In this document: one piece after another, positions 1,940-22,688 of the stretch
Position numbering within the stretch: the stretch's first letter is position 1
Layout of the letters: each line of letters opens with the position of its first letter
Assembly (NCBI GenBank): GCA_003979035.1
Contig: RXOA01000043.1
Coordinates: forward strand, 1 to 44,538
Reading direction: 5' to 3'
DNA from: Candidatus Bipolaricaulota bacterium
GTDB taxonomy: Bacteria; Bipolaricaulota; Bipolaricaulia; UBA7950; UBA9294
DNA: 44,538 nucleotides
Translations under genes and position numbers: made by a program
The notes under the pieces: generated by a model
The model's input: only the letters and a program-made list of their open reading frames with translations
Databases searched by the model: none
What the model was told of the DNA's origin: nothing

Positions 1940-2791
1940 ATGATGGGAAGAGTGATCTGTCTACTGCTGGTGGGAGTCCTCGCCATCGGGGCAGCATGCT
2001 TGGCGGTCCCTGTGATCGTTGAGCAAGTGCTTGACTCCGAGCCGGGGTTCGGGCTGTATCTTTGGTTCGACGACGATTTCGGCTGGACGCATACGCTCGA
2101 AGATGGAGTATCTCCGACATGGCTGTTCGGAGCAGCGACACTTACGATCAAAGCCAACGATGTGGACTCGCCGAGGGAACAGGATCTGATCTACGCCGAC
2201 GGAGGGCTGCTGGGAGCGCTGTTTGGCTCCACCGGCACAACCACAGAGACAACATTTACGATTGCCGACCTTGCTTCGCTTGTCGGAGATCGCGCTGTCA
2301 GTATTTTCCTCGACATCGACAGCACAAACGGAAACTGGGCAGTGACTATCCTCGAATCGGTCCTTCGCTATCGCTACATGCTTCCCCGCGCCCATGTGGA
2401 CATCGAGTCTCTCGACGCCCCAGTCGGGGCCGGAGGAGCGACGGGAGCGCCAGGAGGCGAAGTGCAGATTGCGATCCTCAACTCCGGAGCGGCAACGTAT
2501 ATCGGTCCGTGCGAGGTTTTCGCCGGCCTTGCCTACACAACGTCATGGCTTCCCGAAGCCGTCACGATCTTCGACACATTTGACGCAGGCATCGTGGAGT
2601 TGGTTCCCGGTGTCCCGCTGACCTTGACGTTCCCGCTCGCAGCGGTTCCACCGGCGCTTCTCGACCTGTTCCATACGCGGCTGGCGGACGTCTGGACGGG
2701 CTACGAAGACGACGATCCGCGGGACTACGTCGGGTTCTTCGTTCGGTTCGACGGACTGCCCACGGTGGTCGACTACTTACCGCTCCCGTAG
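1940..2791 (+). CDS. secreted or membrane-anchored protein of unknown function (283 aa)
   Basis: AAGGAGG at 1928-1934 lies 5 nt before ATG 1940; the ORF-track start 1919 is 7 codons upstream. The N-terminal hydrophobic segment is MMGRVICLLLVGVLAIGAACLAVPV. I recognise no family. It is the first sizeable gene downstream of the riboswitch. Confidence 0.7.
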   Translation: MMGRVICLLLVGVLAIGAACLAVPVIVEQVLDSEPGFGLYLWFDDDFGWTHTLEDGVSPTWLFGAATLTIKANDVDSPREQDLIYADGGLLGALFGSTGTTTETTFTIADLASLVGDRAVSIFLDIDSTNGNWAVTILESVLRYRYMLPRAHVDIESLDAPVGAGGATGAPGGEVQIAILNSGAATYIGPCEVFAGLAYTTSWLPEAVTIFDTFDAGIVELVPGVPLTLTFPLAAVPPALLDLFHTRLADVWTGYEDDDPRDYVGFFVRFDGLPTVVDYLPLP

Positions 2792-2850
2792 GGCGGTAGA
2801 CCGAAGCGGATCCGGAGCAGGCCGGGCCGCGCGGGATGAGAGAAAAGGAG

Positions 2851-2880
2851 AAACGGACGGATCGGAGGATCCGCCCGTTT
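2851..2880. terminator. intrinsic terminator hairpin between convergent genes
   Basis: aaacggacggatc-ggag-gatccgcccgttt forms a 13-bp stem with one mismatch. The minus-strand reading is followed by cuccuuuucucuc. The plus-strand stem ends in guuu. Confidence 0.5.
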
Positions 2881-2927
2881 CGCTTCCCGCGGGAGGCGGC
2901 AAATGCTTCTCCGGCCTCCAATGCCCC

Positions 2928-2955
2928 CCCGAGGCGGCGAGAATTCCGCCTCGGG
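2928..2955. other. GC-rich perfect hairpin just past the giant-gene stop
   Basis: cccgaggcgg-cgagaatt-ccgcctcggg forms a 10-bp perfect stem. There is no U-tract on either strand. Confidence 0.3.
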
Positions 2956-2967
2956 CGCCGTCACATG

Positions 2968-5900
2968 CTAGTAGAGAATCGTCGCCTGCCGATACACAGC
3001 CCGAATCTGACCGCTTGATCCCAGGGTGACTCGAAGCGCGTGAGATGGGTCTCCTCGCGTGAACAGCTGCAGAATGAGGATGTCGTTCCAGGTTTCGCTC
3101 TCCGCGTCGTACCGCTGCCACTTCCAGAATTCGAGATACCGCTCGTCCTGTGTCCAATGCTCGGCTTCCGGATCCAGTGTGACCTGCCGTTGCCGCGAAT
3201 CGCACAGTTGGAATGGCGCCACGCGTGCCTCTCCATCCACCAGAATCTGCGGATAGATCGCCTCGGTCTCATACTGAGGCGTCTGGAACAGAGTGAACGT
3301 GGTGGTTGCGATTCGCTCGTACATGACCACCGCACTGATGTTCAAGCAAGGGACCGCGGTGAGATCGGGCGGCACAGTGGGCGTGACGGTGATTGTCGGC
3401 CCTTCACCGCTGTACACCGCACGATAGGCGGCTTGCGCTTCCATCGACACGCTGATGTTCTGCTGCTCGCCGATCGTCATCCACGAATCGGAGTTCGGAT
3501 CGTACTTCTCCCAGCGATCGAAGGGAAGCTGCTCCTGCTCCAGGCTGTACGCGTACGAGTTGGCAGTCAGGTTGTACCGCTGCCCAGCGACATCACAAAG
3601 CTGGAACGCTGTCTGCTGTTCTTCCGAGTAGTTCACCGTAATGTACGCCGCGATCTCCGTGGTTGTCCCTGAGAAGAACAGGAAACCCGGCTGCTCATGA
3701 ACCGCTGAGACCGTCATGCACACTCGGCTCAAATCCGGCACGTAGCGGCCTTCTCCGGTGAGAACAACCGTGAGCCTGGCGATTGTGCACTGCCGGTAGT
3801 CGATCAGATTGAACGTCGTGCTGTAACTCGCGCCGGGCTCGAAGGTTCCGGACACGGAACCCATGCGGTTTGCCACATCGAGTGTGATTCCTCCGTCAGG
3901 CGGCATGCTCGAGCTGATCGGGATCGCCCCGGCAAGCTCGTAGGCGGCCACTGCCGACCAGATCGAGGACGGGATAGACATGCTTCTCGTGTAGTACCCG
4001 CCACTTGGAACCTGCCCCAGATCCCACGTAAGAGGAATCGTCTCCGGACACCCCGGTGTCGGAATTCGGTCGTCAGGCGTCGTCCCCGTCTGCGGACAGC
4101 ACGAATCGCATGACGGGCAACGGTCGATGCCCTCGTCCTCGCAGATGGGTGTTAGGCACTCGGGATCAATGAAGGATCGGATCGACATTTCGATATCCGG
4201 CACGACCTCGACCGAAGTCTGCGCTGTGGCTTCTGCACTCGCCGCAGCATTCGCCATCGCAAACGCTTGAGCAAGAGCTGTTGAACATGCCTCAGCGGCC
4301 ACTGAAGCTCGAACCGACGCGTGCGCTGCCGCCTGAGCCGATGCCGATGCCGAAGCGAACGCCATTGCCAATGCCTCCACGGAGGCAAGCGCTTCTGCGT
4401 GGGCTTCCGCTAGGACGCTGACCGCGCTGAACGCGAGCACGTGTACGGAGGCTTCGGCACGCGCCGCCGCGAACGCACCCGCAACGGCATCGGCATACGC
4501 CGCCGCCGCAGCTTGCGCCGCAACGGCTACTTCGGCCTCCGCAATCGCAGCCGCTCGAGCCGCCGCCAAGGCCGCTGCATACGCATCTGCGTGGGCAAGG
4601 GCAATCGCCTCCACGCCAACGCCCACCTGTACGGCCGCTTCAGCCTGCGCCAGCGCAGCCGCATACGCGTAGGCGTCCGCGTCTGCCTGGGCCGCAGCCA
4701 TCGCATCGACAGCAACCGAAACTTCCGCTTGAGCGTCCGCTTCCGCTTGAGCTGCAGCAAGTGCTGCTGCCTGCGCTTGACTGACTGCCTGCGCTACCGC
4801 TTCGGCGTAGACCAGAGCTTCGGCCGAGACATCCGCGTATACCGAGACGCACGTTCGTGCTTCGGCATGGGCCTCGGCTGCCGCTTCGCAGATCGCTTGA
4901 CTTTGCGCAAGCGCCACTGCACAGGCTTCGGCATAGGCAGATGCGGCCGCCCGCGCAGAGGCCTGCGCGCGAGCTGCTGCCGTGGCGGCTGCCTGCGCAT
5001 AGCCGAACGCATCCGCCGAGCTCGTAGCAACTGCTGCAGCATACGCTTGCTCATAGCTGAACCCAGTTCCGGCTGCGGATGCTTCGCTTTGCGCAGATGC
5101 ACTCGCTGAGCCGGCAGCGGTGACACATGCTTCCGCCGCTGCTTGAGCTTCCGCCGCTGCTGCGGCACACGCCGCTGCCTCTACGGACACTCGCGCGACA
5201 GCAGATGCGACGGCTCCACTCATGGCCGAAGCTGCGGCTTGAGCGCGTGCGAACGCGCTCGCCGACGCACTTGCCGCCGCTGTCGCGCGCCCGCTCGCCG
5301 TCGCGTACGCAGCTGCCCACGCCCTGGCTTGGGCGTCTGCTTCCGCACATGCCGTAGCCGCCGCTGTCGCCGCGGCAGAAGCTGTGGCCCGGGCTTCCGC
5401 AACCGCCGACGCCATCGCCGAAGCTGAGGCTGAGGCCGTCGCACAAGAGCTGGCAATCGCTGCCGCGCTCGCTTGTGCCGTGGCCTTCGCTCCAGCCATT
5501 GCCTCCGCCATCGCTTCGGCATGCGCTGCAGCAAGTGCGCACGCAGAGGCAGCGGATGTGGCCTGAGCAGTTGCGTCGCTCTCCGCGATCGCAATCGCCC
5601 GCGCCGCCGCTTGGGCGGACGCCGTCGCCTGCGCTGCAGCAATCGCAATGGCTTCGGCATAGGCGACAGCTTCTGCACGAGCCTCCGCAATCGCAGCAGC
5701 CGCGGCAAACGCCTGTGCCTCAGCTGAAGCGCTCGCTCGAGCAATCGCCTGAGCAGCTGCTTGGGCTTGGGCATACGCTACCGCAGATGCCTCCGCCTGA
5801 GCGACAGCACTTGCGTACGCAGACGCAGCTGCCTCTGCATGAGCTGATGCTGACGCTTGAGCAAGTGACGCCGCCTGCGCGGCCGCTCGGGCTGCGGCAT

Positions 5901-6915
5901 CCGCTTCGGCGACTGCCGTCGCAATTGCCTGAACGACACCTCGAACCTCACCGACAACCACTCCGCATGGGACTTCTTGCGCGATGTTCTGCCCGACAAC
6001 CTGAGCGATGCTTTGTGCCTGAGAGTAAGCCGATGCCGTTGCGGCAGCGTACGCTGCTGCTTGAGCAGCAGCCTGGGCAACTGCTGAGGCGCGCACTTCC
6101 GCCGTTGCAGTGAGCTCCGCGCACACCTCGACTTCCGCGCTGGCGCTGGCGTATGCAGCGGCGGCCGCAGTAACGCGGACTTCGGCGATCGCGATCGCCT
6201 CCGCCATTGCCTCAGCGATCGCTTCAGCGTAACTCGCCACCGCAGCCTCAACGGAAACGCAGGCCGAAACGCTGGCCTGTGCTTGTGCCGCCGCGGCGGC
6301 AATCGCTCGCGCCATCACCTCAACGGCCGCTTCCGCTTCCGCCCGCGCCGAGGCACATGCCGATGCCGATGCCCCAGCATGCGCGACCGCTTCTGCGCAA
6401 GCCAAAGCAAACGCGTCTGCCGTGGCTTCGGCTTCGGCGATCGCCAAAGCACATGCTGACACGCTCGCCTCGGCCCGGGCCCGCGCATCGGCACAAGCCG
6501 AAGCAAACGCAGACGCCCGTGCTTGAGCCCAAGCGTACACGGACTCAATCGCCGACGCCCGTGCTTGAGCCGACGCAAGAGCTTCCGTGCAGGCTTCCGC
6601 ATGGCTCTCCGCGGTCGACTCGACTTCCGCCTCGGCGGTCGACACGGCGGTCGCGGCGGCCTGAGCTTCACTGACTGCTTCCTGCGCCTTGGTCAGAATG
6701 TCTTCTGTATCCAGTTCTGCGAGCAGGAGGCGCGCTTCCTGCTCGATCGCCTCTGCTTCAGCCGCCGCAAGCGCCGCTGCTGAAGCCGACGCTTGCGCAA
6801 GTTGAACAACATCTGTGAGGACAGGGATCTCGGTGGAGGTTTGCGCCGAGGCAAATCCCGCATAGGCGCCCACCAAGATCAGTCCGACAACAAACAACAA
6901 CCTTGCCGCTTTCAC
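2968..6915 (-). CDS. giant secreted alanine-rich (Ala-X)n repeat protein (about 1315 aa)
   Basis: AAGGAGG (reverse complement of 6921-6927) lies 5 nt upstream of GTG 6915. This start gives the Sec signal MKAARLLFVVGLILVGAYAGFASA|QTST; the ORF-track start 6990 is 25 codons upstream. The order is about 860 aa of Ala-X alternation, a Cys-rich linker, then a ~370-aa globular C-terminus. Stop is TAG at 2968-2970. Confidence 0.85.
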   Translation of the reverse strand: MKAARLLFVVGLILVGAYAGFASAQTSTEIPVLTDVVQLAQASASAAALAAAEAEAIEQEARLLLAELDTEDILTKAQEAVSEAQAAATAVSTAEAEVESTAESHAEACTEALASAQARASAIESVYAWAQARASAFASACADARARAEASVSACALAIAEAEATADAFALACAEAVAHAGASASACASARAEAEAAVEVMARAIAAAAAQAQASVSACVSVEAAVASYAEAIAEAMAEAIAIAEVRVTAAAAAYASASAEVEVCAELTATAEVRASAVAQAAAQAAAYAAATASAYSQAQSIAQVVGQNIAQEVPCGVVVGEVRGVVQAIATAVAEADAAARAAAQAASLAQASASAHAEAAASAYASAVAQAEASAVAYAQAQAAAQAIARASASAEAQAFAAAAAIAEARAEAVAYAEAIAIAAAQATASAQAAARAIAIAESDATAQATSAASACALAAAHAEAMAEAMAGAKATAQASAAAIASSCATASASASAMASAVAEARATASAAATAAATACAEADAQARAWAAAYATASGRATAAASASASAFARAQAAASAMSGAVASAVARVSVEAAACAAAAAEAQAAAEACVTAAGSASASAQSEASAAGTGFSYEQAYAAAVATSSADAFGYAQAAATAAARAQASARAAASAYAEACAVALAQSQAICEAAAEAHAEARTCVSVYADVSAEALVYAEAVAQAVSQAQAAALAAAQAEADAQAEVSVAVDAMAAAQADADAYAYAAALAQAEAAVQVGVGVEAIALAHADAYAAALAAARAAAIAEAEVAVAAQAAAAAYADAVAGAFAAARAEASVHVLAFSAVSVLAEAHAEALASVEALAMAFASASASAQAAAHASVRASVAAEACSTALAQAFAMANAAASAEATAQTSVEVVPDIEMSIRSFIDPECLTPICEDEGIDRCPSCDSCCPQTGTTPDDRIPTPGCPETIPLTWDLGQVPSGGYYTRSMSIPSSIWSAVAAYELAGAIPISSSMPPDGGITLDVANRMGSVSGTFEPGASYSTTFNLIDYRQCTIARLTVVLTGEGRYVPDLSRVCMTVSAVHEQPGFLFFSGTTTEIAAYITVNYSEEQQTAFQLCDVAGQRYNLTANSYAYSLEQEQLPFDRWEKYDPNSDSWMTIGEQQNISVSMEAQAAYRAVYSGEGPTITVTPTVPPDLTAVPCLNISAVVMYERIATTTFTLFQTPQYETEAIYPQILVDGEARVAPFQLCDSRQRQVTLDPEAEHWTQDERYLEFWKWQRYDAESETWNDILILQLFTRGDPSHALRVTLGSSGQIRAVYRQATILY
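4207..6810 (-). repeat. period-6-nt / period-2-aa (Ala-X)n coding region
   Basis: Traced by eye: about 430 consecutive dipeptides with no register slip. Position 1 is Ala in the large majority, otherwise mostly Val/Ser/Gly. Position 2 is variable (A,S,E,Q,T,Y,R,V,D,H,M,I,F,C,L,W). All four Ala codons are used and I saw no long exact DNA repeats. Confidence 0.85.
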
Positions 6916-6933
6916 GTCGACCTCCTTTGCCCA

Positions 6934-6959
6934 GCATCCGTCCCTATTGCCTCGGATGC
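6934..6959 (-). other. 5'-leader stem-loop just upstream of the giant-gene SD
   Basis: On the minus strand, gcatccg-N12-cggatgc forms a 7-bp stem ending 6 nt before AAGGAGG. Confidence 0.3.
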
Positions 6960-7289
6960 GACGCGAGTCCAGAGTGGAAATCGAGGACACAAGGCCCCCC
7001 TATTGCGACCGCAAAGCCCCGCCTGCCATGTGCCGCTGACAAGGCCGCAGTGCCAGCTGCGAACGAGGAGAGCGGAATTGCGTTTGCCGATCCCAACAGA
7101 GAACGCCCGGTTTGGCGACCGTCCACTGCAACGACTCATCCCATTTCCCTGACCCTACGACGATTGACCATGCCGGGGCAACTTCATGGTCGATTCAAGA
7201 CATCCGGCCCAATCGATCGGGGCAGTTTCCCTTGCCGCGGATCAAGAGCTGCCTGAAAATCATGCCGTACGCTGGAAGAGGGGGAGACG

Positions 7290-7757
7290 ATGTTCAACAC
7301 TGTTTGCAGGGGGAAAGCCATGTTGACGGCCGCCGTCGGCACGGGGATTCTTTGCTCCATCCTGCTCGGCGGGTGCGCCATTTTGTCGCCGCCGGCCGCC
7401 GTCGGTGGAACATGGTCCGGACAGATTACCTGGGATGCAAGCGGGTTGTGGAGTCCGTTCTCGATGACGCTTGTTCAAGATGGATCAGCAATCCAAGGCG
7501 AGGTCCGCCTCTCAGGACCGGGGGGGCAGTCGTTCGCAATTGTCGTCAACGACGGGTCAGTCGGAGGCAGGGACTTCTCCCTCGACGCCAGCGGAACGAT
7601 GAGCCTGGTCTCGCCTTCGGTGCTTGTCCAACTCGCCTTGGATGGTGAAGTGGATGACACCAGAGTCACAGGAACGGGAACTCAATGGAACGACGGTGCG
7701 CCCAATACGTTCGAATGGTTCGCCGATCTCATCGCTCCCGCCGAGCCCGATGATTAG
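7290..7757 (+). CDS. putative lipoprotein (155 aa), unknown function
   Basis: GAGGGGGAG precedes ATG 7290. The signal MFNTVCRGKAMLTAAVGTGILCSILLGG|C has a lipobox-like LLGGC (Cys29). It is transcribed divergently from the giant gene. Confidence 0.65.
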   Translation: MFNTVCRGKAMLTAAVGTGILCSILLGGCAILSPPAAVGGTWSGQITWDASGLWSPFSMTLVQDGSAIQGEVRLSGPGGQSFAIVVNDGSVGGRDFSLDASGTMSLVSPSVLVQLALDGEVDDTRVTGTGTQWNDGAPNTFEWFADLIAPAEPDD

Positions 7758-7825
7758 CGTAGCCGCAAACGGGAAACCGCTCCCACCGTGAATTCTCCGG
7801 GGATCTCCGGCTGCCGATGGTCTGA

Positions 7826-9142
7826 CTACGTTTCAGCTGCGGGGGCCGCGACAAAGACCGTAAGCGTGAACGTGTTCGAAGGGGTGTCATCCCATGCGCG
7901 TTTGTACGCAAGCTGGACCAGCGCTTGACCAGCAGCCTCACCAACGATGACGAACCGCTGGATGCCGCCGGATCCGATGCCCCCGGAAACGACATCATCC
8001 GCAAAATAGCAGCCGCTCTCTGCCCCGACGAGATCCACGATTCCCGCCGGCTCGAGCGAGATGAGCTCCCACCGGTACCCCGTCGTCGGATTCGACGGCA
8101 AATCGATGGCCAATGTCTCGCCGGGAGAAAGCATCACCGCCCGTCCGTCAGCTGCGTCGACGTCCACAATGCGAAGATCCACCGCGTCTTCGCCCGGAGT
8201 CACCGAGATCTGGTCCAAGTAGGCATACGGGTGGGCGGATCGACTCAGCTGAACCCGGACGATTCCTTCGATGCGAACCATCTTTCCTAGGTCCTCTGTC
8301 ATCTCCGGATCCAACCCGGCCGGGGTCTCCCCAACCGCGTAGATATACCAGCCATCCGCTCCAAACACCCAGCAATTGCAGCCGTCGTAGATGCAGTCCG
8401 GTGGGATGCCATCGACAAGTTCGGCCATTGCGCCGTAGTACTGCCCATCCAACTGTACGCCTCGTCCTTCATGCGCTCGCGGATCAGCGAGGATTGCCGC
8501 CAGGTCGGGGGACGCGGCCTCCGCATCGTCGCCCAATGAAACAAGGCATGCCAGCACTGCGCTGTCGTTAACGACGGCAAATGCACCTGCGGTCTCGTCG
8601 ACCTCAGAGTTGACATCATCACGGCCGCCATCTGCGTGCGGTGCTGCACGAAGTCGGAAACCTTCCGTGACAAGCATCGGATCGAGAAGCACATACGCAC
8701 CCCGAGCCAAGTACCCGGTGGTGCCGGTCTCCGGCGGCGCCTCTCCACACGGCTCAAACGGATTGTCCAAGTGCAGCGTTCCCGCTTCGGCCACGGAGCC
8801 GTCGAGATGGTGCAACGAGATCGCCACGTCAAGATCGAATCCGGTCCCCCCGAGAATCCTGTCGGACACCCACGCCGTTACATTCACTGCCGCTTGCACG
8901 ATTGCAGCCCCTGTGTCACGCTGTGCCGGCCACGTCCACTCCGCGTAGTCTCCTTCATCCGCACACCACATGCGCTCAACTTGCGTCCCCGATCCATCAA
9001 ACGCATCGGGGTCAGGCAGCGACGTACGGACCGCGGATTCGGCGACAGCCGCGACACCGGCCAAGGCAAGACACGCCATTATCCCCAGCTCGATCATCAA
9101 CAAGGCTGCCCCACGCGTTCTCCCCTTCATTGCCTTGGTCAT
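7826..9142 (-). CDS. secreted protein with C-terminal chagasin-like (I42) cysteine-protease inhibitor domain
   Basis: N-terminal signal-like MTKAMKGRTRGAALLMIELGIMACLALAGVAAVA. The last ~117 aa carry the three chagasin loop motifs: NPTTGYRW, GSGG (in GGIGSGGIQRF) and KRAW (RPW-like). The ATG at 9142 overlaps the hyuB stop as ATGA. Confidence 0.75.
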   Translation of the reverse strand: MTKAMKGRTRGAALLMIELGIMACLALAGVAAVAESAVRTSLPDPDAFDGSGTQVERMWCADEGDYAEWTWPAQRDTGAAIVQAAVNVTAWVSDRILGGTGFDLDVAISLHHLDGSVAEAGTLHLDNPFEPCGEAPPETGTTGYLARGAYVLLDPMLVTEGFRLRAAPHADGGRDDVNSEVDETAGAFAVVNDSAVLACLVSLGDDAEAASPDLAAILADPRAHEGRGVQLDGQYYGAMAELVDGIPPDCIYDGCNCWVFGADGWYIYAVGETPAGLDPEMTEDLGKMVRIEGIVRVQLSRSAHPYAYLDQISVTPGEDAVDLRIVDVDAADGRAVMLSPGETLAIDLPSNPTTGYRWELISLEPAGIVDLVGAESGCYFADDVVSGGIGSGGIQRFVIVGEAAGQALVQLAYKRAWDDTPSNTFTLTVFVAAPAAET

Positions 9143-10851
9143 CGTACGCTCCTTTCGCCGTCTTCATTCGTCTGCAATGAAATCTCCCCCACCCCTACCC
9201 GTTTCGCCGTCACGCGACCCTCGATCCGATCTCGCTCTCGGGCCATCGGGTCTCGCATCCCGATCGGTCCGAGTCCGCCGCCGCCCGGAGTCCGGATACT
9301 AAGGACATCTCCATCGCGGAGCTCCAAAACCACCTTGCCCGGAAGGGGCGTCGCCTGCGTATTGCCGTTGATCAGGAGGTTCTCCCCTGGTGCCCCGTCC
9401 TGCCCTCCGCTGATCCCGTACGGCGCATGGGTTCGACGATCGGTCAGCAACGACGCGTGAGCCGTGTGAGCCGTGGGCATCAAGTCGCGCCGCACTCCCA
9501 TTCCCCCTCGGTACATCCCATCTCCTCCACTATCGGCAATCAACTCGTATCGGACAACCCGCAGAGGGTACGCAATCTCCAACGCTTCGACCGGTGTATT
9601 CAACGTATTGGTCATATGCGTGTGGATTCCATCGATCCCATCCGATCGCGGACGCCCCCCCATGCCGCCGGCGATCGTCTCGTACAGGGCATACGGTTTC
9701 CCTGAGCGAGGATCGGCTCCGCCAATGGTCACGTTGTTCATGGTTCCCTGGCAAGCGGCCATGGAGCGCTCCGGACACAGTCTATGGATTGCTCCAAAAA
9801 GACAATCGACAATCCGCTGTGATGTTTCCAGGTTCCCGCCGACCACCGCCGCCGGTGGCAGTGCGTGTACGATCGATCCCCGCGGAGCCTTGATCGTCAA
9901 CATCCGATAGCATCCGCCATTGGGAGGAATCGATGGATCGGTTATGGCACGAAGGACGTAGTAGACGGCAGATGCCGTAACCGCTTCCACCGCGTTGATC
10001 GGACCGTCCACCTGAGGGCTCGATCCGCGAAAGTCAACGCACACTCCGTCGCCGCGGACCGCAACACGCACCGCAATGCGGATGTCCCGATGACCTCTTC
10101 CGTCATCGTCAAGGACATCCTCGAAATACGCTTCTCCATCAGGGATCCGGCGAATCTGCTCCCGCATCCTCCGCTCCGAGTAGTCTTGGATGGCCTGCAT
10201 CGCGCCGGTAAGGACCTCGGCCCCGTGACGCTGTGCCAGCGCGACCATTCTCCGAACCCCGGTGACGCATGCCGCATACTGCGCCTGAAGATCGCCTCTC
10301 CGTTCCTCGGGCGTTCGAACGTTGGCAAGGATCAGATCCAACAAATCCTCACGAATCACGCCCCTCTTCCAGAGCAGAATCGGGGGAATTCGCAGCCCTT
10401 CCTGGAAAATCTCGGTCGCATCTCCGGCGACGCTCCCCGGGCTCTTTCCCCCAATATCGGAATGGTGGGCTCGCGAGGACGCGTATCCCAGCAATCGTTC
10501 TCCGAAGAACACGGGGGCGACAAACGTCACGTCGGGAAGATGCGCTCCACCGGCGAACGGATCGTTGACCACGGCAACATCACCGTCACCGAAACACTCG
10601 ATCTTCTTCCGAACCGCGGCCACTGAGTACGGCATCGCGCCAAGATGAACGGGGATTGACTCCGCCTGTGCCACAAGTTCGCCTCCGGCATCAAACAACG
10701 CGCACGAGCAATCCCGCCGTTCCTTGATGTTCGGACCGTATGCCGTGCGAACGAGGTTCACGTTCATCTCCTCGGCCGCCGCGGCCAGCGCATGGCGGAT
10801 GACTTCGAGTGTGATCGGATCCACATGCTGTTCGTCGACGTCCTGTCTCAT
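9139..10851 (-). CDS. hyuB: hydantoinase B / oxoprolinase family protein
   Basis: DPITLEVIRHALAAAAEEMNVNLVRTAYGPNIKERRDCSCALFD is typical of the Hydantoinase_B N-terminus. The start is set at ATG 10851, which overlaps the hyuA stop as ATGA (plus strand tcat at 10848-10851). The ORF track extends 25 codons further. Confidence 0.85.
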   Translation of the reverse strand: MRQDVDEQHVDPITLEVIRHALAAAAEEMNVNLVRTAYGPNIKERRDCSCALFDAGGELVAQAESIPVHLGAMPYSVAAVRKKIECFGDGDVAVVNDPFAGGAHLPDVTFVAPVFFGERLLGYASSRAHHSDIGGKSPGSVAGDATEIFQEGLRIPPILLWKRGVIREDLLDLILANVRTPEERRGDLQAQYAACVTGVRRMVALAQRHGAEVLTGAMQAIQDYSERRMREQIRRIPDGEAYFEDVLDDDGRGHRDIRIAVRVAVRGDGVCVDFRGSSPQVDGPINAVEAVTASAVYYVLRAITDPSIPPNGGCYRMLTIKAPRGSIVHALPPAAVVGGNLETSQRIVDCLFGAIHRLCPERSMAACQGTMNNVTIGGADPRSGKPYALYETIAGGMGGRPRSDGIDGIHTHMTNTLNTPVEALEIAYPLRVVRYELIADSGGDGMYRGGMGVRRDLMPTAHTAHASLLTDRRTHAPYGISGGQDGAPGENLLINGNTQATPLPGKVVLELRDGDVLSIRTPGGGGLGPIGMRDPMARERDRIEGRVTAKRVGVGEISLQTNEDGERSVR

Positions 10852-13010
10852 CCCGGTGCCTCCGCGCCCTGAATCCGCGTCGGATAGAGCAGGAGGTTCC
10901 CGGCTCCGTCGTCCACGGCCTCCCAATTCGGAGGAACGATTGTCGTTGCGTCATCGCTCAGCAACACCGCAGGCCCCAGGAGCCGTCTCCCCGGCAGCAG
11001 AACCCTGCGCTCGACGAACGGCGTTTGCCTCTGAGTCGGTCCTTGATCGCCACGGAACCAGGCGTTGCCGCAACCCAGTGTCGGAAGTTCCGCGTCGCTC
11101 AAGACCGGGAGTCCCTCGATTTCCTCACCCAACAAGAAGCTCGATGCTGCTTGCTGCCGATCATCGGCACGAGCAACGGCACGGACGCGGACCGATACAA
11201 CCTCGACACCCGTCTCCCATGCAGCATAGCCGTACCGTTCATGGTGGGCTTCATGAAATCGACGCTCCGCCGTGTCTGCAAGCGCGGCCAATCCTTCTCG
11301 AACCTCGCTCTCCGTCCCGCGCACCAGCTTCAGTGACAACTCATGTGCCTGACCGACATAGCGAAGATCACAAAGCAATTCGAAACCGATCTCCCGGCAA
11401 AGTGGCTCATCTTCGGCAAATCGACTCCGTGCCTGGTCAAGAAGGCGTACCGCTCCCGCGAGCAGCCGGTCCCCACACGAGCGCAGCGGTGCTACGATCC
11501 CTTGACTGAAATCGTAGCCTGTGCGCCCGGCCAGCAGCCCGTACGCAGAGAGAACGCCGGCCATCGAGGGAATGATGGCACACCTGATCCCCAGCCGCGC
11601 GGCAAGGCTTGCCGCGTGAAGAGGGCCGGCCCCGCCGAATGCCGCAAGCGCGAACTCCCGCGGATCATGACCACGTTCCACCGAGATGACGCGTATCGCC
11701 CCTTCCATGGCTGCATCCGCCACCTCGAGAATTCCAAGGGCGGTCCTCTCCAAGGGAAGTTCGAGCTTCTGTGCGAGCGTGTTGACGGCCCGTGTGGCCG
11801 CATCGGCATCCAGGTTCGGAAGTCCGCCAAGAGGATGATCGGGATGAAGATGCCCCAGCACAAGATGCGCATCCGTGACCGTCGGCTCGGCGCCGCCGCT
11901 CCCATAGCAAGCCGGCCCGGGATCAGCGCCTGCGCTCTGCGGTCCGATCCGAAGCGAGCCGCCATCATCAACCCAGGCGATGCTTCCGCCTCCCGCCCCG
12001 ATGGTGTGAATGTCGACCATCGGCAACGCGACCCGGTATCCGCCGATCATTCCTTCCGTGGTATACGCGGCTTCGCCATCACGAACGAGTGAAACGTCGC
12101 AGCTCGTCCCGCCCATATCCAACGCGATCAGATCGTCGATCCCCATTGCACGGCCAACTTGGATCGCGCCTTCAACACCTCCGGCGGGGCCGGACAGCAG
12201 CAGGCGCACCGGCTGCTCGCAGGCACGAGCAACGCTTGTCACGGCACCACTTGATTGCATGACTTGCCACGGACATTCCATACCCAGCCCGCGGCTTCGT
12301 TCGTGGAGTTCGGTCAGGTAGGCGCGCACCCGAGGCGCCAGCGCCGCGTTGATCACAGTGGTCGAAGTCCTCTCGTACTCGCGAAACTCAGGCACCAACT
12401 CCGAAGAAAGCGTCACCGGAACGCCAATCGACGATCGCAGAACTTCCCCGATCCTTTGCTCGTGCGCAGGTTCGAGGTACGAGAACAACAAACAAACAGC
12501 AACCGCTTCCACGGCCTGCTCGCTCAGGGAAGCCACAAGCAGGCTGAGCGAGGCCTCGTCAAGCGGCATCAGAATCATACCGTCACTGGCAACCCGTTCC
12601 GCGATTTCTCGCCGTAGATCCCTCGGAACAATCGGCGTCGGTCTGCCGACATCAAGATCGTACAACGAAGATCGATTCTGGCGCCCGATCTCGAGAACGT
12701 CGCGAAACCCCTCGGTGGTGACAAGCGCGGTGCGCGCCCACTTCCCCTCAAGGAGTGCATTGGTCGCCACGGTCGAGCCATGCGCTATCCGGACCACATC
12801 GTTCGCAGAAAGCGCCGCACTTCCGGCGCGACAGAGGTTTGCCAGTCCGGACAAAACGGCTTCGGCGGGAGCGCTCGGCGTTGACGTGAACTTGTAGCGC
12901 CCGAACTGCCCATCCCGAAACACCACCACATCGACGAACGTTCCGCCTATGTCGATCCCCATTGTCGTGGCCATCGCCCGAGTATAGCCATCCTCCGCCA
13001 GAATCGACAA
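10848..13010 (-). CDS. hyuA: hydantoinase A / oxoprolinase family protein
   Basis: MGIDIGGTFVDVVVF is an actin-fold ATPase N-terminus, and length (~700 aa) fits HyuA. The longest ORF starts at TTG 13010. ATG 12974 (MATTMGIDIGG) is an equally plausible start. Confidence 0.85.
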   Translation of the reverse strand: MSILAEDGYTRAMATTMGIDIGGTFVDVVVFRDGQFGRYKFTSTPSAPAEAVLSGLANLCRAGSAALSANDVVRIAHGSTVATNALLEGKWARTALVTTEGFRDVLEIGRQNRSSLYDLDVGRPTPIVPRDLRREIAERVASDGMILMPLDEASLSLLVASLSEQAVEAVAVCLLFSYLEPAHEQRIGEVLRSSIGVPVTLSSELVPEFREYERTSTTVINAALAPRVRAYLTELHERSRGLGMECPWQVMQSSGAVTSVARACEQPVRLLLSGPAGGVEGAIQVGRAMGIDDLIALDMGGTSCDVSLVRDGEAAYTTEGMIGGYRVALPMVDIHTIGAGGGSIAWVDDGGSLRIGPQSAGADPGPACYGSGGAEPTVTDAHLVLGHLHPDHPLGGLPNLDADAATRAVNTLAQKLELPLERTALGILEVADAAMEGAIRVISVERGHDPREFALAAFGGAGPLHAASLAARLGIRCAIIPSMAGVLSAYGLLAGRTGYDFSQGIVAPLRSCGDRLLAGAVRLLDQARSRFAEDEPLCREIGFELLCDLRYVGQAHELSLKLVRGTESEVREGLAALADTAERRFHEAHHERYGYAAWETGVEVVSVRVRAVARADDRQQAASSFLLGEEIEGLPVLSDAELPTLGCGNAWFRGDQGPTQRQTPFVERRVLLPGRRLLGPAVLLSDDATTIVPPNWEAVDDGAGNLLLYPTRIQGAEAPG

Positions 13011-14642: not shown

Positions 14643-14993
14643 CTAGACCAGCATCAGACGAGCGAGTTCAGCACCATCGCCTTGCCTGGGTCCAAGCTTC
14701 AAGACACGTGTATACCCGCCTTGCCGATCCGCGAACCTTGGCCCCACTTCCTCGAATAGCTTGTCCACCGCCGCCTTGTCCTGCAAGCGAGAGAATGCGA
14801 TTCGGCGAGCATGCAAATCGCCCCTCCGCGCCAGCGTGATCAGCCGCTCGGAATAGCGCTGCGTTGCCTTTGCCCGCGCCAGTGTCGTGTCCACCTTGTC
14901 GTAGAGAATGAGCCCCACGGAAAGGTTTGCAAGGACGCTCTCGCGACGAGCCTTGACCATCCCCAGCTTCTCCGTGTCTTGTCTATGCCGCAT
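14643..14993 (-). CDS. rplQ: 50S ribosomal protein L17
   Basis: N-terminus MRHRQDTEKLG and GGYTRVLKLGPRQGDGAE. It is the last gene of the alpha operon. Confidence 0.95.
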   Translation of the reverse strand: MRHRQDTEKLGMVKARRESVLANLSVGLILYDKVDTTLARAKATQRYSERLITLARRGDLHARRIAFSRLQDKAAVDKLFEEVGPRFADRQGGYTRVLKLGPRQGDGAELARLMLV

Positions 14994-15936
14994 CTCGCAT
15001 CTCCTCTTCGCTTCTCAACTCGTAATCCAGCTCTCGCAGGCGTTCCTCGACACGGCCGAGGGTCTTGGCGCCGAATCCGTGGATATCGAGAAGTTCTTCG
15101 CGCGGGTGCGACAACAGGTCGCCAAGCGTCACGATTTCAGCTTCACGCAGCAAGTTGCACGCACGAGGATCGATATCCAGGTCCGTGAGCAAGATTGCCA
15201 GCCTGCCATCTTCCTCGGGAGTCGATTCTACCAACTCGACCCCAAACGGATGCGCGGCGAAGTCAGAGAACATCGATAGATGATGGGAGAGGATTTTCGC
15301 CGCTTCCGAAATCGCCTCCTCGGGGCGGATCCCGCCGTTCGTCGACACCTCCATCGTCAGCCGCTCATACCCACTCAGACCGCCCACGCGCGTTTCCTCG
15401 ACCGTGAAGTTCACCTTGCGCACGGGAGAGAAGTCGGCATCAATCGGAATGACGGAAATCGCTCCATCGGCAAGCTTGTTCAATTCGGATGTCCGATAAC
15501 CGTAGCCGGTCTCAACCTCAAGCTCCAACTCCAGTACGGCATTGCCGTTCAAGGTCGCAAGGCGGAGGTCGGGGTTGATCACTTCCACTCCAGGTGGGAG
15601 CACCAAGTCCGCAGCGGTCACTTCGCACGGGCCCGTCTTCTCCATGGTGAGTCGCTTCACGTCCTCGCCATGGGCCCTGAGCCCAATCGACTTGATGTTC
15701 AAGATGATTTCCAAGATATCTTCTTGAACGCCATCGATCGTGTCGTATTCGTGGTACTTGCCGGCAAACATCACACGTACAACGGCCGCACCGGGAATCG
15801 CGGACAGCAGCGTCCGTCGCATGCTGTTCCCAAGCGTCGTTGCCATCCCCCGCTCCAGCGGAGAGATCACGATCTTCCCGTACGTGTCGCCGAGTTCCAC
15901 CGCTTGGATCTTGTCCGGGAAAACCAGTCCGTCCAT
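14983..15936 (-). CDS. rpoA: DNA-directed RNA polymerase subunit alpha
   Basis: 317 aa with LERGMATTLGNSMRRTLLS and a C-terminal domain containing LTDLDIDPRACNLLREAEI. GGAGGGG precedes the ATG. Confidence 0.95.
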   Translation of the reverse strand: MDGLVFPDKIQAVELGDTYGKIVISPLERGMATTLGNSMRRTLLSAIPGAAVVRVMFAGKYHEYDTIDGVQEDILEIILNIKSIGLRAHGEDVKRLTMEKTGPCEVTAADLVLPPGVEVINPDLRLATLNGNAVLELELEVETGYGYRTSELNKLADGAISVIPIDADFSPVRKVNFTVEETRVGGLSGYERLTMEVSTNGGIRPEEAISEAAKILSHHLSMFSDFAAHPFGVELVESTPEEDGRLAILLTDLDIDPRACNLLREAEIVTLGDLLSHPREELLDIHGFGAKTLGRVEERLRELDYELRSEEEMRDAA

Positions 15937-15945
15937 GTGCCCCTC

Positions 15946-16569
15946 CTAGCGCGAGTAGAACTCGACAATGAGATTCGCGGCGATCGTCTGCTTGGTGTCC
16001 TCCGCCGTCGGCAGCGAAATCAGTTGTGCTCGCATTGCCTCAGCGTTCCGCTCCAACCAGTTTGGCACATCCCGTCCCTGGTTCTGCTCCGCAAACGGTC
16101 GGAGGGCGCTCTGCCGAGACTCCTTGACAGAGATCAGGTCTCCCTCGCAGAGCGTTACCGACGGAACATTCGTCGCGCGCCCATTGATTTCGAAATGCCC
16201 GTGCGTGATGAACTGCCGAGCTTGATCGCGAGACGATGCAAAACCGGCACGGTACACGGTGTTGTCGAACCGGCGCTCCAACAACGAAAGAATCGTCTCA
16301 CCGGTGACTCCCTTTTTCCGCTTCGCCGTTTCAACGATCTTCCGGAATTGCCGCTCCCGCAGCCCGTAGATCCTCTTTGCCTTCTGCTTCTCGCGCAGGT
16401 GAAGAAGGTACTGACTCTTGCGCGGTCGCCGTTTCTTCGCTCGCTCACCGGGGGGTGTTCCACGTCCGGACATCGGACAGCTACGAGAGTAGCAGCGGTC
16501 GCCCTTGATGTAGAGCTTCTCCCCTTCACGCCGACACCTCTTGCACTTGGGGCCTGTTTCTCTGCCCAT
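15946..16569 (-). CDS. rpsD: 30S ribosomal protein S4
   Basis: CKRCRREGEKLYIKGDRCYSRSCP zinc ribbon and an S4 domain. Operon position fits. Confidence 0.95.
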   Translation of the reverse strand: MGRETGPKCKRCRREGEKLYIKGDRCYSRSCPMSGRGTPPGERAKKRRPRKSQYLLHLREKQKAKRIYGLRERQFRKIVETAKRKKGVTGETILSLLERRFDNTVYRAGFASSRDQARQFITHGHFEINGRATNVPSVTLCEGDLISVKESRQSALRPFAEQNQGRDVPNWLERNAEAMRAQLISLPTAEDTKQTIAANLIVEFYSR

Positions 16570-16919
16570 TATCGTCTCCCCCTGCTGCTACTGTGCGAGA
16601 CAGGTGTCACGTTTCTCACGTCCTCAACACGGATTCCAGAGTTCTTGATCGTCTGCAGAACCGACTGCCTGCCCGACCCGGTACCCTTTACGGTGATCAG
16701 GACAGAGCGCACCCCAGCATCCTTCATGTCGCGCACCAGCGCCTCCGCAGCAATCTGTGCTGCATAAGGAGTTCCCTTGCGGGATCCTTTGTAGCCGACA
16801 GTCCCGGGGCTTTTCCACATCACAGGGTTTCCGTTGGGCTCCGTCACAGTGATAATCGTGTTGTTGAACGTCGCGTGGATGTGGACCCGCGCTCGCTCAA
16901 GCTTAATGTTCTTCGCCAT
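16569..16919 (-). CDS. rpsK: 30S ribosomal protein S11
   Basis: HIHATFNNTIITVT and GYKGSRKGTPYAAQ motifs. The C-terminus is atypical (see findings). Confidence 0.93.
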   Translation of the reverse strand: MAKNIKLERARVHIHATFNNTIITVTEPNGNPVMWKSPGTVGYKGSRKGTPYAAQIAAEALVRDMKDAGVRSVLITVKGTGSGRQSVLQTIKNSGIRVEDVRNVTPVSHSSSRGRR

Positions 16920-16921
16920 CT

Positions 16922-17287
16922 TTACCTCTTCTTCCCTGCTTTCGCCGGGCGAGGCCCCTTCAGGGTTCTCGCGTTTGCACGCGTACGTTGACCGCGGGCG
17001 GGCAGGCGTCGCTTGTGACGAATCCCACGGTAGGCGTTGATGTCTTTCAACCGCTGGATACAGCCCACGACCTTTCGGCGAAGGTCACCTTCTACCTCAA
17101 ACTGCTCCACTTCGCGTCGAAGCGTGGCGACTTCTTGTTCCGTGAGGTCTTTCACACGGGTGTCCGGAGACACGCCTGCTCTCTCAAGGATTTCTGTGGC
17201 CCTGGTTGGGCCAATCCCGTAGATGTAAGTCAGACCGATCTCGACACGCTTGTCGTTCGGCAGGTTGACACCAGCTATCCGCGCCAT
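16922..17287 (-). CDS. rpsM: 30S ribosomal protein S13
   Basis: [29 protein letters not shown] 17287 is preceded by AAGAGGAGAGAAGG; the ORF track extends 18 codons further. Confidence 0.95.
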
Positions 17288-17300
17288 ACCTTCTCTCCTC

Positions 17301-17414
17301 TTACCCCTGTCGCTGCTTGTGTCGGGGGTTCCGACACACAATCATCACGCGCCCTCTGCGTCGAATCACTTTACAGTGTGCACAGATCTTCTTCGCGGAA
17401 CTTCGGACCTTCAT
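17301..17414 (-). CDS. rpmJ: 50S ribosomal protein L36 (37 aa, not in the ORF track)
   Basis: Manual translation gives [37 protein letters not shown]. It has the Zn-binding CxxC...CxxxxH form and lies between infA and rpsM as expected. Confidence 0.93.
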
Positions 17415-17446
17415 ATCGAATCTCGGACCTTTCTGTGCCCTCGTTG

Positions 17447-17686
17447 CTAGCTTTCGCGGTACACAATCCGTCCCTTGGTCGTGTCATACGGAGACATCTC
17501 AATGATGACACGATCGCCTGTGAGAATGCGGATGTAGTGTTTCCGAATCCGGCCAGAAATGTGGCACAACAGCATGTGGCCGTTGCTCAACCGTACACGG
17601 AACATCGAGCTTGGCAGACACTCGAGAACTTCACCCCGCACGCGAATCACGTCCGAACTACTGCCTCGGTTTTCGGCCTTTGCCAC
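17447..17686 (-). CDS. infA: translation initiation factor IF-1
   Basis: [56 protein letters not shown] start. Confidence 0.95.
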
Positions 17687-17692
17687 AGGTCC

Positions 17693-18448
17693 TTATTCAC
17701 CTCCTCGCGTCAAGACTTCTGCGAAAGTTTCCGTCACTAGGACGGTATGCTCAAAATGCACTGCAAGACCTCCACTTCCTGTGGTCACGGTCCAGTCATC
17801 CGTTTCGAGCTTGGTCGGCTCAGGATCGACCTTCACCATCGGTTCAATCGCCAGAACCATTCCTGGTTTAAGCCGAGGGCCTTGGCCTGGAGGGCCGTAG
17901 TTCGGAATCTGAGGATCCTCGTGCAGTTTTCTTCCTATCCCATGCCCAACATACTCACGCACGACATAGAAACCCTCACGCTCCACGTAAGAGCCGATCG
18001 CGTGAGACACATCGGACAGTCTGTTTCCCATTGTAACTTGCGAAATCCCTTCCCACAAGCTCTGCTTGGTAACCTCGAGAAGCTTCCTTGCAGTTGAGTC
18101 CACCGCGCCAACCGCCACCGTGGTCGCCATATCGACGAACAATCCGTCTTTCTCAAGCCCAACGTCGACAGAAAGGAGATCGCCCGAGCACAACACCCGA
18201 TCGCGACTCGGAATTCCATGAACAACTTCTTCATTGATGGACGTGCACAGCGTCGCCGGATAGCCGCGGTACCCCTTAAACGCAGGTTCCGCTCCCGCTT
18301 CGCGGATTCTACGCTCCGCGAGTTCATCCAGTTCCAGCGTACTCACGCCCTCCTGCGCCGCGGACATGACTTCGGCAAGAATCTCGGCCAACAACTTCCC
18401 GTTGTCACGAAGCACCGCGATCTCCTGCTCGCTCTTGATCGCGATCAT
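17693..18448 (-). CDS. map: type I methionine aminopeptidase
   Basis: 251 aa with VVHGIPS, DVG, YVGHGIG and LAIEPM motifs. ATGA overlap with the adk stop. Confidence 0.95.
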   Translation of the reverse strand: MIAIKSEQEIAVLRDNGKLLAEILAEVMSAAQEGVSTLELDELAERRIREAGAEPAFKGYRGYPATLCTSINEEVVHGIPSRDRVLCSGDLLSVDVGLEKDGLFVDMATTVAVGAVDSTARKLLEVTKQSLWEGISQVTMGNRLSDVSHAIGSYVEREGFYVVREYVGHGIGRKLHEDPQIPNYGPPGQGPRLKPGMVLAIEPMVKVDPEPTKLETDDWTVTTGSGGLAVHFEHTVLVTETFAEVLTRGGE

Positions 18449-19074
18449 GCTGCCTCAACGACCGCAAGGATCTGGACAAGAACTGCTTCGGGGGACTGAT
18501 TTCCGTCCACTTCACTCAAGATCCCCAACTTGCCGTAGTAGGCAATCAATGGAGCCGTCGCTCCGATGTAGACATCGAATCGGTTCTCGATAACTTCCCG
18601 GCGATCGTCATCGCGCTGGTACAGCTCGCCGCCGCAGTCGCGGCAGGCTCCGTCCGTGGCTGCATCATTCGAGAGAATGTTCGTGATCCAACCGCAATCT
18701 CGGCAAACCCGCCTTGACGTGAGCCGAGCGATGACTTGCTCGCGATCGAGGGCGATGTACAGCACATGATCCACATGCGTGATCCGCGCCAGCGCTTCGG
18801 CTTGAGCAACGGTTCTCGGAAATCCGTCAAGGATGAACCCTTCGGCATCGCCGATCTTGCCTCGGATCATCTCGATGATCACGTCATCAGGAACAAGATC
18901 TCCCCGATCCATGAATGCGCGCGCGTTCATCCCCAGCTCGGTGCGGCGGGCAACCTCGTCACGTAGCAGATCGCCGGTCGAGAGGTGAAGCAGTCCGGTC
19001 TTTTCAACCAGCCACTTCGCCTGCGTACCCTTGCCGGCACCTGGAGGTCCAAGAAGAATGATCCGTCGGCCCAT
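18445..19074 (-). CDS. adk: adenylate kinase (Cys4 zinc lid)
   Basis: GPPGAGKGTQA P-loop. Lid is CRDCGW...CRDCGGEL. Confidence 0.95.
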   Translation of the reverse strand: MGRRIILLGPPGAGKGTQAKWLVEKTGLLHLSTGDLLRDEVARRTELGMNARAFMDRGDLVPDDVIIEMIRGKIGDAEGFILDGFPRTVAQAEALARITHVDHVLYIALDREQVIARLTSRRVCRDCGWITNILSNDAATDGACRDCGGELYQRDDDRREVIENRFDVYIGATAPLIAYYGKLGILSEVDGNQSPEAVLVQILAVVEAA

Positions 19075-19078
19075 GTTG

Positions 19079-21675: not shown

Positions 21676-21690
21676 CTCGCCTCACACTCC

Positions 21691-22673: not shown

Positions 22674-22688
22674 CGCTTGTACCTCTCC

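Follow-up and report, generated by a model that had tools for sequence, protein, structure and literature searches.

How can several hundred residues alternate between alanine and almost any other amino acid, and which fold would such a chain adopt? This question is raised by a minus-strand gene (positions 2968-6915) of contig RXOA01000043.1, from the assembly GCA_003979035.1 of a Candidatus Bipolaricaulota bacterium. The whole stretch of 44,538 nucleotides that was analysed is called the window below. A sequence-only reading had described the product as a giant secreted protein with an alternating (Ala-X)n tract, X being any residue, and had interpreted this tract as an extended, silk-like or cross-β structure. 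We found that the tract is under strong selection at the protein level. Our preferred interpretation, to which we give a probability of about 0.55, is that of a Sec-exported fibrous envelope protein in which an Ala-X α-helical coiled-coil stalk, possibly stapled by disulfides, is combined with immunoglobulin (Ig)-like domains.

Alternation and conservation of the Ala-X tract

Composition and periodicity statistics were computed over residues 40-904. Even positions are occupied by Ala in 342 cases out of 433 (79%), then by Val (43), Ser (19) and Gly (9), and the six residues Ala, Gly, Ser, Thr, Val and Cys together account for 96.5% of them. At the odd (X) positions, 19 residue types are found, the most common being Glu (64), Ser (62), Ala (61) and Gln (47); the entropy of this lattice reaches 3.72 bits and 24% of its residues are charged. 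Of the 17 Cys in the tract, 16 belong to the odd lattice and 1 to the even one, and Pro (1), Lys (2) and Asn (2) add up to only five. The Fourier spectrum of the Ala indicator peaks at a period of 2.00 with 160 times the mean power, and the Ala parity bias is 281, compared with a maximum of 57 in 5000 shuffles. In the window protein, which includes an ADARARAEA stretch, the register runs without slip, residues 306-328 and 616-620 included. At the DNA level, the four Ala codons are all used (GCG 143, GCC 69, GCA 68, GCT 62), the longest exact direct repeat of the region is 18 nt, and Tandem Repeats Finder gives trivial arrays only, with no long tandem repeat. The counts therefore bear out what had been noticed by eye, namely an alternation over some 860 residues, about 17 Cys nearly all at X positions, a scarcity of Pro, Lys and Asn, and a mixed use of Ala codons without long exact repeats.

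We then looked for relatives. With the C-terminal 410 residues as query, nine homologues with 40-50% identity were found, several of which have Ala-X sequence upstream and one of which is labelled Candidatus Bipolaricaulota. From contig look-ups and a scan of the species genomes of GTDB, we obtained eight further full-length genes (1310-1321 aa), each from another Bipolaricaulota assembly, so that the orthologue set comprises nine sequences with the window protein; an assembly artefact, which the sequence-only reading had considered, is contradicted by these eight assemblies. One of them (L003) was taken in after a single frameshift correction: near position 9600, the orthologue on this metagenome contig is broken precisely where the Ala-X tract meets the linker (open reading frames 6958-9837 and 8771-10915), through either an assembly error or pseudogenisation. 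An exact-sequence look-up did not find the window protein itself on record.

The alignment of the nine orthologues has 865 tract columns and a single one-residue gap (L005, in a GxG loop at residue 618). Ala is invariant at 252 of the 433 even positions, which sets aside the idea that homologues would show ordinary Ala-rich low complexity with no conserved period. At the X positions, 87 out of 432 are invariant, ten Cys among them. In this alignment, the X positions of distant orthologues are 42-47% identical and those of the closest pair 78-82%; in an alignment of three orthologues, X identity is 44-51%, against 9% expected from shuffling. Conservation of the tract equals or exceeds that of the folded C-terminal domains. 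In comparison with the closest relative (synonymous divergence, dS, ~1), its ratio of nonsynonymous to synonymous substitution rates (dN/dS) is 0.066 (0.036 at even positions and 0.075 at odd positions), and that of the C-terminal part is 0.127. Moreover, 172 of the 334 conserved Ala have a changed codon in this relative. As dN/dS is low and half of the conserved Ala differ in codon, selection acts on the amino acids, in agreement with the earlier argument against recent slippage. The tract is a real, strongly constrained protein, neither low complexity nor an artefact.

The unbroken register, by contrast, is not kept throughout the family. The one-residue deletion of L005 at residue 618 reverses the Ala parity downstream, so the register need not run unbroken across the hinge at 616-620. 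Parity is also reversed once in each of the distant homologues P0012 and P0015. The single register of the window protein, which had rightly been described as continuing across its interruptions, thus reflects an absence of insertions and deletions rather than an absolute need across hinges.

To cover the wider family, 1.84 billion representative proteins were searched, with 64 hits at E <= 0.001. The true homologues have a common N-terminal plan, made of a signal peptide, a cap, an Ala-X tract with a VPCG-type interruption and a TSVxV...D..T junction, and their C-terminal domain sets vary. The homologue P0010 (1513 aa) comes from Candidatus Acetothermia, and P0012 and P0015 are more distant. 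A relative of P0015, L015, belongs to Candidatus Fraserbacteria, so the family covers at least two candidate phyla; this L015 member (1977-5360; 1127 aa) has Lys-rich X positions. BLASTP with composition adjustment recovered only fragments between the tract and P0010, and MAFFT alignments were used in its place.

A longer period is also present in the tract. When the X-lattice profile is compared with itself, z values of 7.2, 5.3 and 3.1 are obtained at lags 32, 64 and 96, and smaller peaks appear at lags 14 and 18. When compared with the window protein, P0010 shows deletions of 28+4, 32 and 32 residues, and P0012/P0015 show deletions of 32, 32, 64 and 32 residues plus three others (62, 36 and 23). 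Because of this self-similarity at lag 32 and of deletions that are mostly multiples of 32, the 32-residue unit is considered an evolutionary and structural module, of which the tract would contain about 27 copies (865/32 = 27). The Cys follow the same spacing: Cys 109/141/173 and Cys 155/187/219 form two period-32 series with a mutual offset of 14 residues, echoed by residues 459/491/523.

Helix or strand in the tract

AlphaFold2, run with a 13-sequence alignment as input, predicts six helices of 36-245 residues (32-67, 70-314, 318-469, 478-615, 619-763 and 771-911) and no strand in the tract. Three of the five helix breaks coincide with conserved Gly/Pro hinges (315-317, 616-618 and 764-770).

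The distribution of bulky residues (I, L, M, F, Y, W, V and C) was analysed independently of this model. At the X positions, their Fourier spectrum peaks at 3.53-3.57 residues, with 13.9 times the mean power against 12.1 for the 99.9th percentile of the null. On the X lattice alone, a period of ~3.5 residues is indistinguishable from an alias of 4.6 residues, but the 3.54-residue peak is preferred since the Val residues of the even lattice share the phase of the resulting seam (z = 2.2, p = 0.012). Over lags 1-30, the autocorrelation of bulky residues is best fitted by cos(102.5 degrees x lag) (r = 0.65, p = 0.0015), and the odd lags alone, which link both lattices, give r = 0.57 (p = 0.016) for this 102.5-degree fit. 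We then assigned each position to the seam core (within 40 degrees) or to the outer face (>100 degrees) with a leave-one-out local phase. The X positions of the core are 54% bulky and 18% E/D/R/K/Q; those of the outer face are 13% bulky and 46% E/D/R/K/Q. Among the 16 Cys at X positions, 12 are located in the seam. In the orthologues, invariance decreases from core to flank to outer face, at X positions (40, 20 and 14%) and at even positions (77, 65 and 60%). The longest runs without Gly, Pro or Asn have 149, 148, 126 and 126 residues, and the mean Chou-Fasman propensity of the tract is 1.21 for α and 0.94 for β.

Charge pairs were compared between related and unrelated tracts. In the homologues P0012 and P0015, which show Glu-Lys pairing, opposite charges at i+4 outnumber same charges (56 vs 16 and 53 vs 13, respectively). 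Ala-X tracts of 100-700 residues are also widespread in unrelated proteins (TolA-like, OmpA-family, AMIN, TPR, FG-GAP), most of them with strong pairing at i+4 (213 opposite vs 1 same, 129 vs 0, 128 vs 1), and domain II of TolA is helical by experiment (PMC12204202). Since these unrelated and distantly homologous tracts show helical i+4 pairing, an α-helix can bear a period-2 Ala lattice, and the lattice of the window tract is most likely carried by one. Two claims of the sequence-only reading are not supported: that a helix would not constrain a period of 2, and that the tract is extended or cross-β, the latter in view of the all-helical model, the 102.5-degree seam, the conservation gradient and the long turn-free stretches.

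Ala-spaced helices look like a general, little-discussed class. The (AEAEAKAK)-like tracts include P0014, P0018, P0023, P0028, P0030, P0037, P0038, P0065 and others, most with near-perfect opposite charges at i+4. Other flavours are (AN)n (P0045), (AQ)n (P0032), Ala-(L/N/Q) (P0042) and, for P0020, a repeat of the 8 residues ATAEAAAS. For the window protein, a single α-helix stabilised by salt bridges, of the (AEAEAKAK)n type, was considered and dropped, opposite charges at i+4 not being enriched: it has 8 opposite-charge and 18 same-charge pairs at this distance, and the Bipolaricaulota orthologues have 40 opposite-charge pairs for 50 expected (z = -1.5).

In the coiled-coil reading, residues 36-904 would form long amphipathic coiled-coil helices made of some 27 degenerate 32-residue units. 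One unit would correspond to nine turns of 3.556 residues, as a combination of 14 residues (3.5 per turn) and 18 residues (3.6 per turn). Because 7 and 11 are odd, the seam would draw its residues alternately from the X and Ala lattices: seam positions 0, 4, 14, 18, 28 and 32 would fall on X (bulky or Cys), and positions 7, 11, 21 and 25 on the Ala lattice (Ala or Val). These positions agree with the spacings of Cys and bulky residues seen in the tract. Such a two-lattice seam implies a very Ala-rich core, about half Ala, in which paired knobs would alternate with paired Ala in a packing akin to that of Alacoils or Ala-zippers. The line of conserved seam Cys would be well placed for disulfide staples to partner helices, which are probable; in a trimer, it could also provide thiolate metal sites. 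The three conserved Gly/Pro hinges would split the rod, and the Cys/Pro linker would connect it to the three Ig-like domains, which would serve binding or lattice contacts. The topology may be either an extended parallel rod of ~128 nm (865 x 0.148 nm) or a folded-back bundle of ~22 nm; the rod is favoured because single-unit deletions are scattered along the homologues.

The first cultured member of the Bipolaricaulota is a diderm with a Thermotoga-like toga and an S-layer (bioRxiv 10.1101/2025.11.21.689855). From the diderm envelope and the Sec signal alone, the protein would be placed in the periplasm or in the toga space. The term "secreted" used in the sequence-only reading thus holds for Sec export but not for release, as a periplasmic or toga-associated protein is possible. 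A spacer or ruler role, of the kind considered for coiled coils in PMC5082667, is suggested by how strictly the length is kept. In sum, the analysis shows the alternation, its position-specific conservation and that of length, the 32-residue module, the 3.5-residue seam and the predicted folds; from these we infer helicity, disulfides, oligomeric state and topology, as well as a role as stalk, spacer or adhesin of a toga-type envelope.

Several observations weigh against this coiled-coil stalk. AlphaFold2 confidence over the tract is modest (mean predicted local distance difference test score, pLDDT, of 59.5; predicted template modelling score, pTM, of 0.28), the alignment is shallow and the program leans to helices on Ala-rich sequence; with such a pTM, the tertiary arrangement and the packing of the monomer are unreliable. 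Opposite charges are in excess at i+2 (z = 2.3) and i+14 (z = 3.8), and not at i+4, in the Bipolaricaulota orthologues, these charge z values being inflated by the use of orthologues as non-independent samples. The even positions of the outer face are 98% small and 81% Ala, for which a simple two- or three-stranded coiled coil gives no reason. Clusters such as VxVGV, which are poor helix formers, reappear at 32-residue intervals towards the C-terminal end of the tract, and indels quantised by 32 residues would fit a solenoid equally well. Short Ala-X peptides, EAK16 and RADA16, form β-sheets in vitro (PMC2387071 and PMC7889856). Finally, no anchor (LPXTG, lipobox, SLH or C-terminal domain of the type IX secretion system) was found with Pfam, with NCBIfam or by reading the termini by eye. 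The functional part of the reading is weakly grounded, since the analysis came upon no anchor, no partner gene and no expression data, and synteny extends to close relatives only.

The small residues of the "exposed" helix face would be explained if the Ala-X lattice were an undescribed material code, which we regard as rather unlikely. Two X ridges (i, i+4, i+8 ...) would then run between two Ala grooves, with one winding per 32 residues. The rods could interlock side by side on all their faces into a paracrystalline layer or fibre; alternatively, they could switch upon assembly to Ala-faced β-sheets, as a bacterial counterpart of silk. Either form accounts for these small residues.

A cross-β or silk-like arrangement appears improbable. 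Extended strands would pack Ala-to-Ala through their all-Ala face, within one molecule as a β-solenoid with 32-residue coils or between molecules. A β face directly explains why one lattice is 96.5% small at a strict period of 2 and at all helical angles; the VxVxV clusters every 32 residues, the solenoid-like indels of whole units, the opposite charges at i+2 and the β-sheets formed by EAK16 and RADA16, which have the same Ala-X design (PMC2387071 and PMC7889856), would also fit. Yet the AlphaFold2 model has zero strands in the tract, and the X positions are led by E, S, A and Q, the mean β propensity of the tract being 0.94. Periodic turn formers are absent, with four runs of 126-149 residues devoid of Gly, Pro and Asn. 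The spacing of bulky residues corresponds to 102.5 degrees per residue, across the two lattices too, conservation is graded by helical angle, and i/i+4 salt-bridge patterns are found in homologues.

We consider equally improbable an α-solenoid of 32-residue helix-turn-helix units, or an antiparallel bundle of six ~145-residue helices folded back on each other. The Cys pairs 155/173, 141/187, 109/219 and 459/491 are placed as mirror images, symmetric about residues 164 and 475, and could be putative cross-links; AlphaFold2 breaks and conserved Gly/Pro occur ~150 residues apart; and the Foldseek matches of the tract are long helical hairpins, all non-significant (colicin E3, root-mean-square deviation 2.7 Å; Maxi, E = 0.65). 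However, residues 164 and 475 carry no conserved turn residues, scattered deletions of a single 32-residue unit would unbalance paired antiparallel helices, and a pTM of 0.28 makes any tertiary arrangement unreliable. A unique hairpin at residue 164 was rejected: a mirror scan gives centres every 16 residues (148, 164 and 180; 480, 496, 512 and 528). Such centres are expected from a symmetric 32-residue repeat, so the mirror-placed Cys do not single out hairpins.

A two-state chameleon, soluble as a helix and converted into Ala-faced β-sheets on assembly at the cell surface, seems very doubtful. The lattice would serve both states, which covers at once the helical seam and the small residues of the outer helical face, and temperature-dependent structural changes of EAK16 are the subject of PMC2387071. 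Direct evidence was not found for it, and position-specific polar X residues with exact conservation of length are more typical of a single fold. Jointly, the β and two-state readings retain a minor share of the probability. The last alternative, in which the tract is just a disordered or low-complexity spacer rich in Ala, or else is non-coding or artefactual in assembly, can draw on the high Ala content and on several further frames largely open in a GC-rich region, but it is scarcely tenable given the X entropy (3.72 bits) and X identity (44-51% vs 9%), the one gap in 865 columns across nine species, the dN/dS of 0.066, and a gene that has a ribosome-binding site and a terminator-like hairpin and whose product has a signal peptide and folded C-terminal domains.

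Gene, flanking domains and chromosomal surroundings

The gene lies in a minus-strand open reading frame at 2968-6990, with the GTG at 6915 as its likely start. The protein begins, as read by eye, with MKAARLLFVVGLILVGAYAGFASA↓Q (the arrow marks the cleavage site), typical of a Sec signal peptide, and in the alignments the signal peptides of all orthologues have a basic N-region, a hydrophobic core and a small-x-small↓Q site. The ribosome-binding site, this N-terminus and the likeness of the orthologues support the earlier prediction of a genuine protein with a probable Sec signal. Antisense and off-frame open reading frames within 3040-6674 were dismissed as by-products of the GC-rich period-6 composition, because selection acts on the minus-strand frame. 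The features of the gene are listed in the table.

Table. Position of the gene, its signals and the segments of its 1315-aa product in the window
Feature	Residues	Positions	Strand	Basis
Ribosome-binding site AAGGAGG, 5 nt 5' of GTG		6921..6927	-	upstream sequence read
Coding sequence, 1315 aa (stop codon counted in the positions)		2968..6915	-	open reading frame list and start choice; purifying selection; nine full-length orthologues
Sec signal peptide, AxA↓Q cleavage motif	1-24	6844..6915	-	read directly from sequence
N-terminal cap: conserved ETLVLSDIVALAQ-type segment and helical stretch, imperfect Ala alternation	25-84	6664..6843	-	alignments; AlphaFold2
(Ala-X)n tract: ~27 cryptic 32-residue units, predicted long α-helices	36-904	4204..6810	-	parity; orthologue alignment; self-similarity; indels; AlphaFold2; seam
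Interruption 1 (VVGQNIAQEVPCGVVVGEVRGVV), hinge/helix break	306-328	5932..6000	-	alignments; AlphaFold2 break 315-317
Interruption 2 (GTGFS), hinge	616-620	5056..5070	-	alignments; AlphaFold2 break 616-618
Hinge 3 (VQVGV), invariant G767	764-768	4612..4626	-	alignment; AlphaFold2 break 764-770
Cys/Pro-rich linker	905-958	4042..4203	-	alignments; AlphaFold2 pLDDT < 50
Ig-like β-sandwich domain 1	960-1055	3751..4038	-	AlphaFold2 pLDDT ~90; Foldseek; repeated in P0010 and P0012
Ig-like β-sandwich domain 2, FQLC...RWEKY...W...YRAVY type	1064-1168	3412..3726	-	AlphaFold2; Foldseek; conserved motifs
Ig-like β-sandwich domain 3, repeat of domain 2 type	1190-1310	2986..3348	-	AlphaFold2; Foldseek; conserved motifs
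Terminator-like hairpin, 14-bp stem then T-rich tail		2850..2881	-	87 nt past stop codon; consensus match only

In the AlphaFold2 model, the cap helices (residues 32-67 and from 70) reach a pLDDT of 71-80. Interruption 1 has three invariant residues (P316, C317 and G318), and G616 and G618 of interruption 2 are conserved across the orthologue alignments. Hinge 3 is one of three copies of a V-x-V-G-V-(D/E)-A-(M/I)-A motif at 32-residue spacing. The junction with the linker is conserved as TSVxVVPDIxTSxxxFIDPxCLxPxC, plus a CPxC motif. Four to five Cys are conserved in the linker (C-x4-C, then C-P-x-C), and their arrangement could correspond to two disulfides or to a metal site.

The three C-terminal sandwiches are modelled with a pLDDT of ~90, and their Foldseek matches are the tandem Ig arrays of pilins, invasins, cadherins and S-layer proteins. 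Homologues carry extra copies of the domain 1 type, together with BACON and choice-of-anchor-D Ig-like domains. Secreted thioredoxin/TlpA-like genes were noticed beside or near distant family members, in L013 (11639-12232, WASTCPYC) and L012 (3230-4123, SPGCPFC). To judge from their motifs, they would fit an extracytoplasmic handling of disulfides in the Cys-bearing proteins of the family; no gene of this kind adjoins the window gene.

A neighbouring gene on the same strand (7826-9142) encodes a protein of 438 aa that ends in a chagasin-type peptidase inhibitor (I42) domain. Two small hypothetical proteins with hydrophobic N-terminal segments are encoded on the plus strand (7290-7757 and 1919-2791). 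These three neighbours are kept beside the gene only in the two closest relatives, and no conserved gene neighbourhood was found among relatives beyond these two. Further away, the window carries hydantoinase/oxoprolinase A and B genes (9139-13010, minus strand) and a cluster of genes for ribosomal proteins, SecY, adenylate kinase and RpoA (14983-27124), and therefore represents ordinary bacterial chromosome.

Comparison with known systems

The protein belongs to an unannotated new family of Bipolaricaulota/Acetothermia, with relatives in Fraserbacteria. Pfam and NCBIfam gave no match of the protein to SLH at E <= 1. The tract itself has no Pfam or NCBIfam match, and against PDB sequences only QA/Ala low-complexity matches were found (e.g. 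TCERG1, Med15). Every named homologue in the databases is a "hypothetical protein", and we found in the literature neither a described Ala-X family nor an Ala-rich protein of Bipolaricaulota. The impression of novelty given by the sequence-only reading is thus maintained.

A natural likeness is given by (A-E-A-E-A-K-A-K)-like tracts (the zuotin segment behind EAK16, TolA-like periplasm-spanning helices, OmpA-family linkers), which likewise have Ala at every second residue over 100-700 residues and which our representative search found in dozens of unrelated proteins. These tracts are of low complexity, with an X entropy of ~2 bits and 70-90% charged residues, and they change in evolution as simple repeats do. 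The window tract differs from them by its hydrophobic/Cys seam, its conservation position by position and its lack of i/i+4 charge pairing.

Ala-rich coiled coils, such as antiparallel Alacoil pairs, the Ala-zipper of Braun's lipoprotein Lpp, the Ala clusters of tropomyosin and the silk fibroins of bees and hornets, have small core residues and tight packing. They form long fibres of helices that act as structural elements or spacers, and in which Ala recurs every 7 residues or in clusters, and not on all faces. Searches of Pfam and of PDB sequences found no homology of the window protein to them. The rules known for heptads, Ala-zippers and charged single helices do not predict a high-complexity, 865-residue, period-2 Ala lattice with fixed length; a structure of the tract would test how this lattice is reconciled with a 3.5-residue packing.

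The hyperactive type I antifreeze protein Maxi is built on an 11-residue Thr-based repeat. It is also an Ala-rich long helical hairpin bundle (PDB 4KE2), and it was the top, although non-significant, Foldseek match (E = 0.65), with a 35% identity to the AlphaFold2 model that comes from composition. Unlike the window protein, Maxi has no period-2 lattice; the two share no homology, and the window organism has no cold habitat. No 11-residue peak was found in the tract spectra.

The synthetic peptides EAK16 and RADA16 resemble the window tract in having one lattice of Ala and the other polar or charged. They are 16 residues long and form β-sheet tapes (PMC2387071 and PMC7889856), whereas the window tract is natural, 865 residues long and shows helical signals. 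For biomaterials, it is a natural long relative of this design, with the addition of a line of Cys and three Ig-like C-terminal domains.

At the level of the whole protein, a comparison can be made with Omp-α of Thermotoga, SlpA of Deinococcus and OmpM, coiled-coil tethers between the outer membrane and the cell wall of deep-branching diderms (PMC9388160, PMC10160955, PMC3387000). The likeness lies in a long Sec-exported coiled-coil rod and a toga-type envelope, and the conserved length suits a molecular spacer (PMC5082667). In the window protein, three Ig-like domains replace the C-terminal β-barrel or membrane anchor of these proteins; with neither an SLH domain nor a barrel, it falls outside the Omp-α/SlpA tether family. 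Its predicted architecture matches that of fibrillar adhesin-like surface proteins, with a signal peptide, a stalk and tandem Ig-like domains. Being strongly constrained, it is a candidate structural component or molecular ruler of the toga-like envelope, observed in culture only very recently, of Bipolaricaulota and Fraserbacteria.

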